Assembly: GCA_904063045.1 (NCBI GenBank)
Contig: CAJFCJ010000060.1
Span: 1,784 to 65,783, forward strand
DNA: 64,000 bases
DNA from: Dimorphilus gyrociliatus
Taxonomy: Eukaryota; Animalia; Annelida
Reading direction: 5' to 3'
Part shown: piece after piece, positions 49,952 through 52,900 of the stretch
How positions within the stretch are numbered: the stretch's first letter is position 1
Layout: every line of letters begins with the position of its first letter
Notes under the pieces: model-generated
What the model was told of the DNA's origin: nothing
Database searches by the model: none
Seen by the model: only the letters and a program-made list of their open reading frames with translations
Position numbers and translations under genes: made by a program

Positions 49952-52900
49952 TGGAAAGAATCAAAGAAAAGGACTTCAGAATCAAGTTAAGCAAATGTGC
50001 ATTTCTACAAGAATCAGTACAATTTCTTGGTCATAGAATTACACAGAATGGTATTGAAACTGATCCAGAAAAGATTCAAAAGATAAAAGATGCTGAATTA
50101 CCAATGTTTGCAAATACTTTACTAAGTTTTGTAGCATTTTGTGGTTATTATAGAAGATTCATCAAGGACTTTGCAAAAATTACAAAACCATTGAGAGAAT
50201 TATTAAAACTACATCAGAAGACTGAAAGACTAAAATGGACTACAGAAGCAGAGAAAGCGTATCAGACACTAAAGAAATCAATGACAGAACCACCAATACT
50301 TCAACTACCTGATTTTAGTAAACCATTCTATCTAACAACAGATGCCTCCAATTATGCAGTTGGTGCAGTTTCAGAACAAGAATGGGAAGAAGATGGAAAG
50401 AAAATAAGAAAGCCAATTTCTTTTGCTTCAAAACTCCTAATCAATACACAACTAAGGTATGCAGCTTATCAAAAAGAAGCTTTTGCAGTCTATTGGGCAG
50501 TACAAAAATTCTCCCATTACTTGCAGTATAAGAAATTTTTTCTTTACACTGATCACCAAAATTTGGTACAAACATTTGTACAAAACAAATTAAATTCAAG
50601 TACTGTTAAATGGGTTGTGGCACTTATGGATATGGACTTTGAAATAATTTACATACCTGGAAGAACCAACAGAGCAGACTGGATATCCAGAATTGGAGAA
50701 ACTGATGAAGTTATTGATTTCCGAAATTTACTAAAGGAAAGACTAAATGAAGAAAAACAAAATGGCAATACAATTCCACAATTAGCAGAAAGAAAGGATA
50801 TGCTTAAATGCTTTTATATTGATACAGAAGATTTAGAAGACTTAGCTGATTGTTTGGATGACATTTTAGACAATAATGATGGTTATGATGAAGAAGCAGA
50901 TGACAAAAAATTACAGATCATGAAATTAAAAAATAAACCTGTTGAGATAAACTTCTACACTGAACAAGTTTTGGATGACACCCTAATGAAAATTGTAGAA
51001 AAATTGGAAGGAGCAAATATTGATGTTGAAATGTTCAAGGAATACAAAAATTTTATTGAACATATGTTTGTCAAAGATGATTTAGTATGGTATCTGAATG
51101 GTTGTCAACCATTACTGGTAATTCCACTACTAACTTTAACAAACCTACTGAACCAAATACATCAACATCAAATATTTGAACACTATGGTGTAGACATAAC
51201 AATTCATACTTTGGAACAAGCTTTCTGGCATCCACAACTTAAGAAAACAATTAAAGACCATATAAAGAATTGCAAATTCTGTGAACAATTAAGAGCACCT
51301 GGAAACAAACATCTATTGGTTGAAACACCCCATCCAACTCTACCAATGCAAAGAATTGCAATGGACATAATGGGACCACTAACAGGACATGAATCTTACA
51401 AATACATACTTGTCATTATAGATCACATGTCAAGATTTACAAATCTATTTCCATTAAAAACTCAGACAGCTGAAGAAATATCAAAACACTTGTTTTTTAA
51501 CTACTTTCCAATATTTGGTATTCCAGAAGAAATTCTCACAGACCAAGGACAGAATTTTCTGGGAGAAATATTTACAGAGATGGTTACATCAATGGGAATA
51601 AGGAAAAAAAAAACAACAGCATTCCATAGCCAAAGTAATGGAATGGTAGAAAGAAAGAATTTGGAAATTCGCAGAGCACTACATAAACATGTAGTTATGG
51701 AACAATTAACAGATTGGACAAGACAATTACCAATAATTCAAACATGCTTAAACCAAATTCCAGTGGGAAGCACAGGCAAAACTCCACATGAAATATTATT
51801 TGGATTGAAGAATAGGAATGTCTTAGATGTGTTAATGGAAGTTCCAAGATTAGAACCAACAACAAAATTTCTATTTGATAGAAAGCATGAAATGGAAGAA
51901 ATAAGAGCAACTGCATTGTGCAAATCTGTCATGAAAAAGAAGGGATATAGAGATAGAGTAAACAAAACTATCACAAGAAAACCCCCAACTTACCAAATTG
52001 GTGAATGGGTACACATAAAAAACGAACACATTGGACAAGGAATGAATAGAATAAATACAAGCAAATGGAGTGGACCATACATTGTAACTGCTACTGATAC
52101 TACAAAATGTCTTTATGAATTGGAAATATTAAATGGCAAAAGAAAATTCTACCATGCTAGTAGACTAAGATTGGCTAACAAACAACCAACTAGAGTTAAC
52201 ACACTCAAGGTAGAGAAACAAGAAAGGAAAGTTGGAACACTTCCTATAAGAGGATCCATTGTTTACACTCTGCTAGCTCTCTGCTTATTAAACTTGGTTC
52301 AGGGAAATGCATCAATAACAAAAGCAAACATAACTGTGAGAATGCTTCCTTCAGTACAATTCTGTCAAGGGCAACAAGTACATCAGTCATTTGATCTGGC
52401 TGATGAACCAATTTGCACATTCAAAACTAAACAAATGACCAAAATAATGGCAAATATTTATGAAATTAAAGCTGATAATTTGGCAATACAAGCTGTTAAG
52501 TGTTTGGTAAAGAGAAGAATCAACTTTTACACTCATTACTTCTTTGGAGCAAAGAAACACAGAGTTGAAAAACAAACACTTACCTTAAGTGACAAACAAT
52601 GCAGAAAAATGTTATTGTCAAAAAAGACCTTAAATGGACAAAAACTCATTGAAAAAGGAAACCTTCTAATGTACAATGAAAACAAAGGATCAAATTACAA
52701 ATGGCCAAGAACAACAGTGGTTGAAGAATTTACAACAATTCTCCAAATTGGCAAAGCTTATTGGCACCCAAGTCAGGATAAGATAACAACCAACTTGGAA
52801 TATTTAGAGGACTGTTCTATCAAACATAAATTTTGTAGAACTCTGGATTCCATTATTATTTTCAATCCTCAGAAAGGACAAAATCTCCTTGGTCATGAAT

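Follow-up and report, generated by a model that had tools for sequence, protein, structure and literature searches.

We describe a family of Ty3/gypsy LTR retrotransposons from the annelid Dimorphilus gyrociliatus that encodes gag, pol, and a class III env in a single reading frame. Two aspects of this family were not found described in the open-access literature searched. The first is that a Ty3/gypsy element whose env is of class III has a single-frame layout like that of BEL/Pao elements. The second is a subfamily, named D, that carries two aspartic proteases, the second of which is likely derived from lineage A of the same family and sits at the border between integrase and the env signal. 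Subfamily D lies mostly outside the window, i.e. the 64,000-nucleotide stretch of contig CAJFCJ010000060.1 that was analysed.

Reading frame and coding content of the family

The window holds two diverged copies, A and B, of one env-carrying Ty3/gypsy LTR element family, both on the forward strand. Copy A (47920..55613) is 5'-truncated, beginning in late gag and ending with a 3' LTR, and matches the genomic copy L031 at 97-99% identity in three blocks. Its aspartic protease (LCDTG; 48281..48562; Pfam RVP, 24.1 bits against a cutoff of 20.7) is followed by a long acidic spacer, a type of module of which subfamily D has a second copy. A stop-free frame of 1445 aa (49897..54234) covers the end of RT, RNase H, integrase, the GPY module, a linker, a signal, and the env ectodomain. 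Within it, Pfam matches (Integrase_H2C2 and rve) and motif positions place the integrase, with its zinc domain, core, GPY module, and RLRLA end, at 51142..52176. The putative class III ectodomain of env follows at 52306..54473, with a C-terminal membrane anchor at about 54417-54473, and the 945 nt 3' LTR (TG...CA; 54669..55613) is preceded by a polypurine tract. The frame of copy A is broken inside RT near 49900-49950 and again in env near 54230. Copy B (32130..37957) belongs to a diverged subfamily whose RT is 71% identical to that of A. It extends from RT to the LTR region and is likewise one frame at 32172-35255, where integrase runs into a cysteine-rich env; in-frame env stops appear from 35255 on. 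A fragment of subfamily D, comprising the end of env and an LTR, was found on the reverse strand (11319..12521; 95.8% identity to copy L137 over 1206 nt).

The window is a nest of elements from this retrotransposon family, with further LTR and env-end fragments on both strands at 29342-30294, 47180-47912, 59316-59917, and 1061-1695. Other features were also observed. An uninterrupted, comparatively GC-rich frame of 1038 aa (2877-5993, forward) presumably encodes a NIDO-AMOP-VWD-Sushi protein of the SUSD2/MUC4-like kind, and a single frame of 553 aa on the reverse strand (26298-27959), with the motif HELAHNLGSGHD and a C-terminal EGF-like repeat, is taken by us to be an ADAM/ADAMTS-like metalloprotease. 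Two forward-strand copies of 97-99% identity (30213-31845 and 60180-61312) are presumably fragments of a Mutator-like DNA transposon. Receptor exons, which we assume to be of LDLa-LRR-7TM type (GRL101/LGR-like), lie between the retroelement copies at 39778-45188 (reverse) and 55582-56052 (forward).

As originally predicted, no stop or frameshift separates integrase from env, either in copy A (52162-52305) or in copy B (34881-35030). Both copies are broken elsewhere, and we therefore examined other copies in the same genome, through DNA searches that gave 40 scored matches to the junction of A and 54 matches to that of B. The linker from RLRLA to the sequon ANIT was open in 26 of 30 A-lineage loci, in six of the seven best B loci, and in four of seven more diverged A-lineage loci. 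The breaks were private to single copies. Linker length was 162, 168, or 174 nt depending on the lineage, i.e. it differed by whole codons only. After base shuffling, just 1-3% of linkers lacked a stop (137/5000 for A, 85/5000 for B, and 65/5000 for the lineage D0), and no stop-free version was obtained from the 403-codon linker of subfamily D (0/5000). Meanwhile, the two remaining frames of the junction linkers contained 2 to 49 stops. A programmed frameshift at the junction was ruled out, as the shifts are private and occur at differing places. Fusions of this kind can escape surveys in which an indel in a single copy is enough to divide an ORF.

The original prediction had proposed a single Pol-Env frame. 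The frame stands but its extent does not, since gag is also included: among 20 longer stretches examined, two copies (L043 and L045) were stop-free over 2051 and 1943 aa, from gag through protease, RT, RNase H, and integrase into env. Both frames begin at an ATG overlapping the primer-binding site, and a frame of 2839 aa was also listed in the genome. The domain order (protease, RT, RNase H, and integrase with a GPY/F module), the TGG-led primer-binding site, the purine tract, and LTR pairs that are 98-99.4% alike (L042, L045, L137, L138) complete the description of the element; subfamily D has an extra protease after integrase. In the A lineage (L031, L043, L045), the overlap between the gag ATG and the primer-binding site is found at the end of the 5' LTR. 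The gag frame also reaches 24 codons further upstream, to an ATG within the LTR, and is open there in A and A'.

Several lines of evidence point to env being a class III fusogen of the herpesvirus gB/rhabdovirus G type. The best Foldseek matches were herpesvirus gB (E 5e-8) and rhabdo/chu-like G (E 5e-11), obtained with a low-confidence model (pLDDT 56) and at TM-scores of 0.1-0.3. A feature search of the ESM Atlas gave 0.93 to Monjiviricetes fusion clusters. The env itself had no Pfam match, and its distant homologues matched Rhabdo_glycop_FD (E 2e-5) and Glycoprotein_B (E 1.5e-4). Searching the PDB with the sequence of one env protein returned no match, and a profile search returned only E 0.08-0.7 matches to gB and rhabdovirus G. 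The gene is under purifying selection (D vs D': dN 0.08, dS 0.94-0.98), and the motif R-x-[KR]-R was not found in the A and A' proteins P0001, P0005, and P0006.

Named database proteins of D. gyrociliatus match the env and pol of the family. Among representative proteins, a search gave 10 matches, none with genomic context. Homologue searches among long proteins found none, which is weak evidence, and neither did scans of metagenome and viral contigs. Two distant homologues (P0010 and P0016) are annotated as stand-alone Met-led proteins. In the ENA record of P0016/P0019, a Phe-rich stretch and the residues FTG stand right before the Met-led signal of the distant env homologue; at the nucleotide level, these could be a pyrimidine tract and a splice acceptor.

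The integrase-env junction and the probable release of Env

Integrase is followed at the junction by a short linker, a hydrophobic core of 12-13 residues, small residues at -3 and -1, and the conserved N-glycosylation sequon ANIT. The junction peptides reported earlier were located at about 52225-52314 in A and 34947-35036 in B. In copy A, the signal-like segment (52240..52305) comprises LPIR (52240-52251), a 12-residue core (52255-52290), and LVQG (52294-52305), with the predicted signal cut after 52305. The junction of copy B (34881..35030) comprises RLRLA, VNHV (34920-34931), FPIR (34965-34976), the core (34989-35024), and LAMA (35019-35030). No hydrophobic stretch of either window protein scores higher than this 12-residue one (Kyte-Doolittle 2.43 and 2.88); in one longer copy, the C-terminal anchor alone exceeds it. 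Lineages A, B, D0, and D all have a segment of this kind at the corresponding position. The residues at -1 and -3 have changed independently yet are small in every lineage seen, as the (-3,-1) rule requires. Hydropathy and this rule bear out the proposal that a signal-like segment lies at the junction of both subfamilies. It had further been proposed that the position of the junction is conserved and its sequence is not. The latter part needs correction: the motifs [VI]N-x-[VLI] and [LF]PI[RK] are common to A and B, and the rest does vary.

The first of these motifs, seen as VNTL at 52195..52206 in copy A, is likely the site at which the element protease cuts after integrase. As [VI]N[TH][VLI], it is present in all seven A- and B-lineage representatives, within flanks that vary, and similar motifs occur at the spacer/RT and RNase H/integrase borders. 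The motif is loose (14 matches in 2051 aa) and is missing from the D0 and D junctions. Ty3-type proteases follow a rule of hydrophobic P2/P2' residues, and no paper on Ty3 cleavage sites was found in the open-access literature.

No lineage has a stop after integrase; therefore, Pol translated from full-length RNA runs on into the env signal. We consider it probable that Env is released from this polyprotein by two cuts, one made by the element protease after integrase and the other by host signal peptidase after the hydrophobic segment. The hydrophobic segment would target the nascent chain to the ER, Env would enter the lumen and be anchored via its C-terminal helix, and signal peptidase would free its N-terminus. 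Until maturation, Gag-Pol would be held by the signal at the cytosolic face of the Env-bearing membrane, after which cleavage at [VI]N-x-[VLI] by the element protease would free integrase. Retropepsins must dimerise, and a strictly co-translational self-cut is therefore less likely. This scheme predicts that proteolysis sets the C-terminus of integrase and that Gag-Pol is tethered to the membrane of Env. It also modifies the suggestion that integrase keeps a membrane-tethering tail, which would probably be cut off by the element protease.

A different reading of the hydrophobic segment is that it is an uncleaved anchor, which would leave Env with two membrane spans and integrase, or a stub of it, attached. 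Some gB-type errantivirus envs are indeed flanked by two transmembrane domains, according to the available text of PMC13524379. However, the core at the junction has just 12-13 residues, its hydropathy over 19 residues is 1.67-1.83 vs 2.58 at the C-terminal anchor, and the small residues at -1 and -3 have been kept through independent substitutions. We regard an uncleaved anchor as highly improbable.

It is also conceivable that most Env is made from a spliced or internally started subgenomic RNA, with the frame kept open simply because Pol ends by proteolysis and not at a stop codon. Spliced env is the rule in Drosophila iERVs, which use several kinds of upstream exon (PMC12992720, accessible sections), and a subgenomic RNA would solve the problem of 1:1:1 Gag:Pol:Env stoichiometry. 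At PIR, a pyrimidine-rich AG scores among the best 3-8% of all AGs in subfamilies A', A'', and B; yet the A subfamily of the window has AAG there, which is not among its three best local AGs, and D and D0 lack the PIR AG altogether. The residues [LF]P are kept in D and D0 without the AG that follows them in A and B, so the conservation reads as that of a protein motif. By a crude score that is not host-trained, the strong donors near the 5' end are in phase 0 or 1 and so do not match the phase 2 that the acceptor at PIR would require. A Met stands just before the signal in D, D', and many A' copies, and the Met-led signal of D and D' would suit an internal start or a spliced message. In A and A'' copies, the residues that link integrase to the hydrophobic core include no Met; thus, their env lacks a start codon of its own at that place. 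No LTR-gag-env retrocopy with GT..AG borders was present among the deletion copies examined, and splicing leaves unexplained why the end of integrase is stop-free in all lineages. On balance, we find it unlikely that subgenomic RNA is the main source of Env, and the polyprotein and spliced-RNA routes can coexist.

Several candidates for spliced copies were rejected. Three copies with a break right after LPIR (L069, L073, L079) instead carry insertions of other repeats, partial matches L059, L061, and L062 were ruled out as LTR-to-env retrocopies, and two deletion copies (L150 and L159) have differing breakpoints. Run X1, whose library type is not on record, showed no joint ending at PIR among the 10 listed for an A' copy, for which 6 of 85 loose ends were displayed, and is uninformative on env splicing; the same applies to its comparison with a D reference that lacked the LTR. 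Contigs of this run skip 60 nt at L140:4447-4506 (GT..AG) and 58 nt at L045:8785-8842 (CT..AC), and both skips resemble short introns of a transcript running antisense to the element. None of the D copies compared shows the 60-nt gap, and if X1 is RNA, this hints at spliced antisense transcripts.

A second protease in subfamily D

When the genome was searched with the protein sequence of an env homologue, the 134 matches included subfamily D as a further subfamily. In its members, an aspartic protease comes in frame after the GPY module; an acidic spacer of about 220 residues then leads to a Met-led signal and env. The second protease matches Pfam RVP (22.4 bits, cutoff 20.7) and RVP_2 (28.1 bits, cutoff 20.3), and the whole insert measures 403 codons, in frame with both integrase and env. 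The subfamily also retains its own first protease, whose DSG motif is intact, between gag and RT. Hence, a mere relocation of the protease was ruled out: D has two. Single frames of 1768 and 1824 aa contain gag, both proteases, RT, and integrase.

Subfamily D is now present in about 40 near-identical copies. Of 133 candidate matches to the DNA of the second protease, 40 were scored and every one was 99-100% identical, and the protease was stop-free in 22 copies matching at 99-100%. From GPY to env, seven of the 25 full-span copies had no single-base indel. The indels of the others are scattered and mostly private, and we interpret them as decay or as errors in the assembly. No frame-changing gap appeared where contigs of run X1, possibly not independent of the genome assembly, span this stretch. 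Two copies, L150 (C80) and L159 (C35), have separate internal deletions that join gag, protease, and the start of RT to spacer, signal, and env without a change of frame, so that RT, RNase H, integrase, and the second protease are lost. These are possibly non-autonomous Gag-PR-Env elements.

The second protease is likely to have been gained, together with its acidic spacer, by recombination with an A-lineage element. It is 64-66% identical to the A/A' proteases, 49% to that of B, and 25% to D's own first protease, while RT identity to A/A' is 61-62% for D and 71-72% for B. This discordance between protease and RT identities indicates capture. The spacer after the second protease is of the A type, and B has no such spacer. 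Trees built within the family, of RT, of the integrase C-terminus, and of env, place D apart from A and B. The protease tree is weakly supported at the relevant node (45-50), so the argument for capture rests on the identities; rows L149, L156, and L096, misaligned after a stop, were dropped from this comparison. In the D-related copy L163 (D0-like), integrase is joined directly to signal and env without an insert, older D' copies retain the spacer ahead of the signal, and D' groups with D against L163 with a support of 93. From this distribution, we infer that the common ancestor of A, B, and D already had the in-frame Pol-Env fusion, and that a single capture of the protease module took place later, once D0 had branched off.

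Selection on the second protease was estimated from four stop-free segments. Pairwise dN/dS was 0.17 to A and 0.23 to A', with intervals below 0.39. On its own branch, dN/dS was 0.33 (bootstrap interval 0.14-1.5; 5.9% of 881 usable replicates at or above 1), compared with the lower values of 0.07-0.10 on the A and A' branches. Since the capture it has gained a dN of 0.17 over a branch dS of 0.51, while keeping DTG and ILGCDFL. Since D and D' diverged, the D branch has accumulated a synonymous distance of at least 0.33, close to this 0.51. Among the columns that are invariant in A, A', and B, 54 of 67 were kept in the second protease, vs 39 of 68 other columns (p = 0.005). Despite its wide interval, this pattern suggests constraint after capture. 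Constraint on the second protease thus probably persists, although the interval would also fit evolution that is relaxed or in part neutral.

The second protease might instead be a passenger of recombination, retained since the frame must stay open to env. The branch dN/dS of 0.33 with an interval up to 1.5, the lack of an insert in the D0-like L163, and a first protease with intact DSG would all fit such a history. Against it, env dS between D and D' reaches 0.94-0.98 (at least 0.33 on the D branch), yet the dN of the second protease is just 0.17, an argument which presumes that the D' spacer stems from the same insertion as that of D. In addition, DTG and ILGCDFL are retained, and the 22 copies that match at 99-100% are stop-free. 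We lean against the passenger hypothesis while granting it a fair chance; even if true, it supports read-through into env.

Returning to a constrained second protease, this enzyme sits where the junction cut must occur and may serve that cut. A more speculative version, which we hold to be doubtful, is that the fusogen is made only as the tail of Gag-Pol-Env and that the two retropepsins of D, the most successful of the family's young subfamilies, have come to divide labour, with the captured one freeing the enzymes from the membrane-bound envelope. The domain order would then be Gag-PR-RT-RH-IN-PR-Env. An element with two intact aspartic proteases, one of them at the Pol-Env border, provides a natural test case for the evolution of cleavage specificity and polyprotein layout through recombination between co-resident subfamilies.

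Comparison with known elements

In-frame Pol-Env in Ty3/gypsy and elements with two proteases were searched for in the open-access literature, where no description of either was found. The available parts of PMC5408684, PMC7642597, and a 2026 preprint on the Atlas capsid contain nothing on the Pol-Env junction.

The insect errantiviruses gypsy, ZAM, and idefix share with the present family a Ty3/gypsy pol, an env placed after integrase, a signal peptide, an ectodomain, and a C-terminal anchor. Their env is of the F type, has an N-terminal signal and a furin site, and is a separate ORF expressed from spliced RNA (PMC12992720, accessible sections). In contrast, the env described here is class III by the above evidence, lies in frame with no separate ORF3, and has no R-x-[KR]-R in A/A'. 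The spliced ORF3 of Drosophila gypsy, which had served as the reference, is not the closest one because the present env is class III and not of the F type.

Subfamily D fits the reported Annelida_Polychaeta_Dgyr_errantivirus_1 by its primer-binding site, gB-type env, and LTR length (631-636 nt vs 635-636 nt in D), as compared by table entries (PMC13524379, Chary and Hayashi, eLife). Subfamily A has the same primer-binding site but an LTR of 945 nt, and A and B are sister subfamilies. For Dgyr_errantivirus_1, three ORFs are drawn and the supplement gives the label GAG-POL. The consulted text of PMC13524379 mentions neither a Pol-Env fusion nor a second protease, the word "protease" appearing once, in a figure legend, and the fusion is likewise unmentioned in the corresponding portions of the preprint. 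The same source reports a chromodomain on the basis of structure prediction; our Pfam scan at E <= 0.1 found none in P0022-P0024. This survey of errantiviruses across animals states, in the part available, that expression of the non-insect members needs further study (PMC13524379).

In the polyproteins of alphaviruses, flaviviruses, and pestiviruses, an internal signal connects a cytosolic viral protein with a glycoprotein; on its cytosolic side the cut is made by a viral protease, and in the lumen by signal peptidase. The layout is alike, but these are unrelated RNA viruses.

The single-frame layout resembles that of BEL/Pao elements (Belpaoviridae). The typical protease of these elements is Peptidase_A17. 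For the present family, Pfam gives RVP and gag-asp_proteas with no Peptidase_A17, and no CCHC knuckle was seen by eye in the gag translations (BEL/Pao: three). The accessible descriptions report that roo has one gag-pol-env ORF of 7083 nt (PMC3087523) and that Atlas encodes 2828 aa with no stops or introns and with predicted cleavage sites like those of phlebovirus glycoproteins (PMC9094657); neither description, as available, mentions a second protease. A single Gag-Pol-Env ORF is thus common to roo, Atlas, and the present Ty3/gypsy family and, having already been described in BEL/Pao, this architecture is not new to LTR elements. Atlas has a class II env and an RT with YVDN, the motif of nematode BEL/Pao members, whereas the present family displays a class III env, Y[ML]DD, and a gypsy-type protease. 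The family shows a route to env without a separate ORF, in which the BEL/Pao solution was reached with a different class of fusogen.
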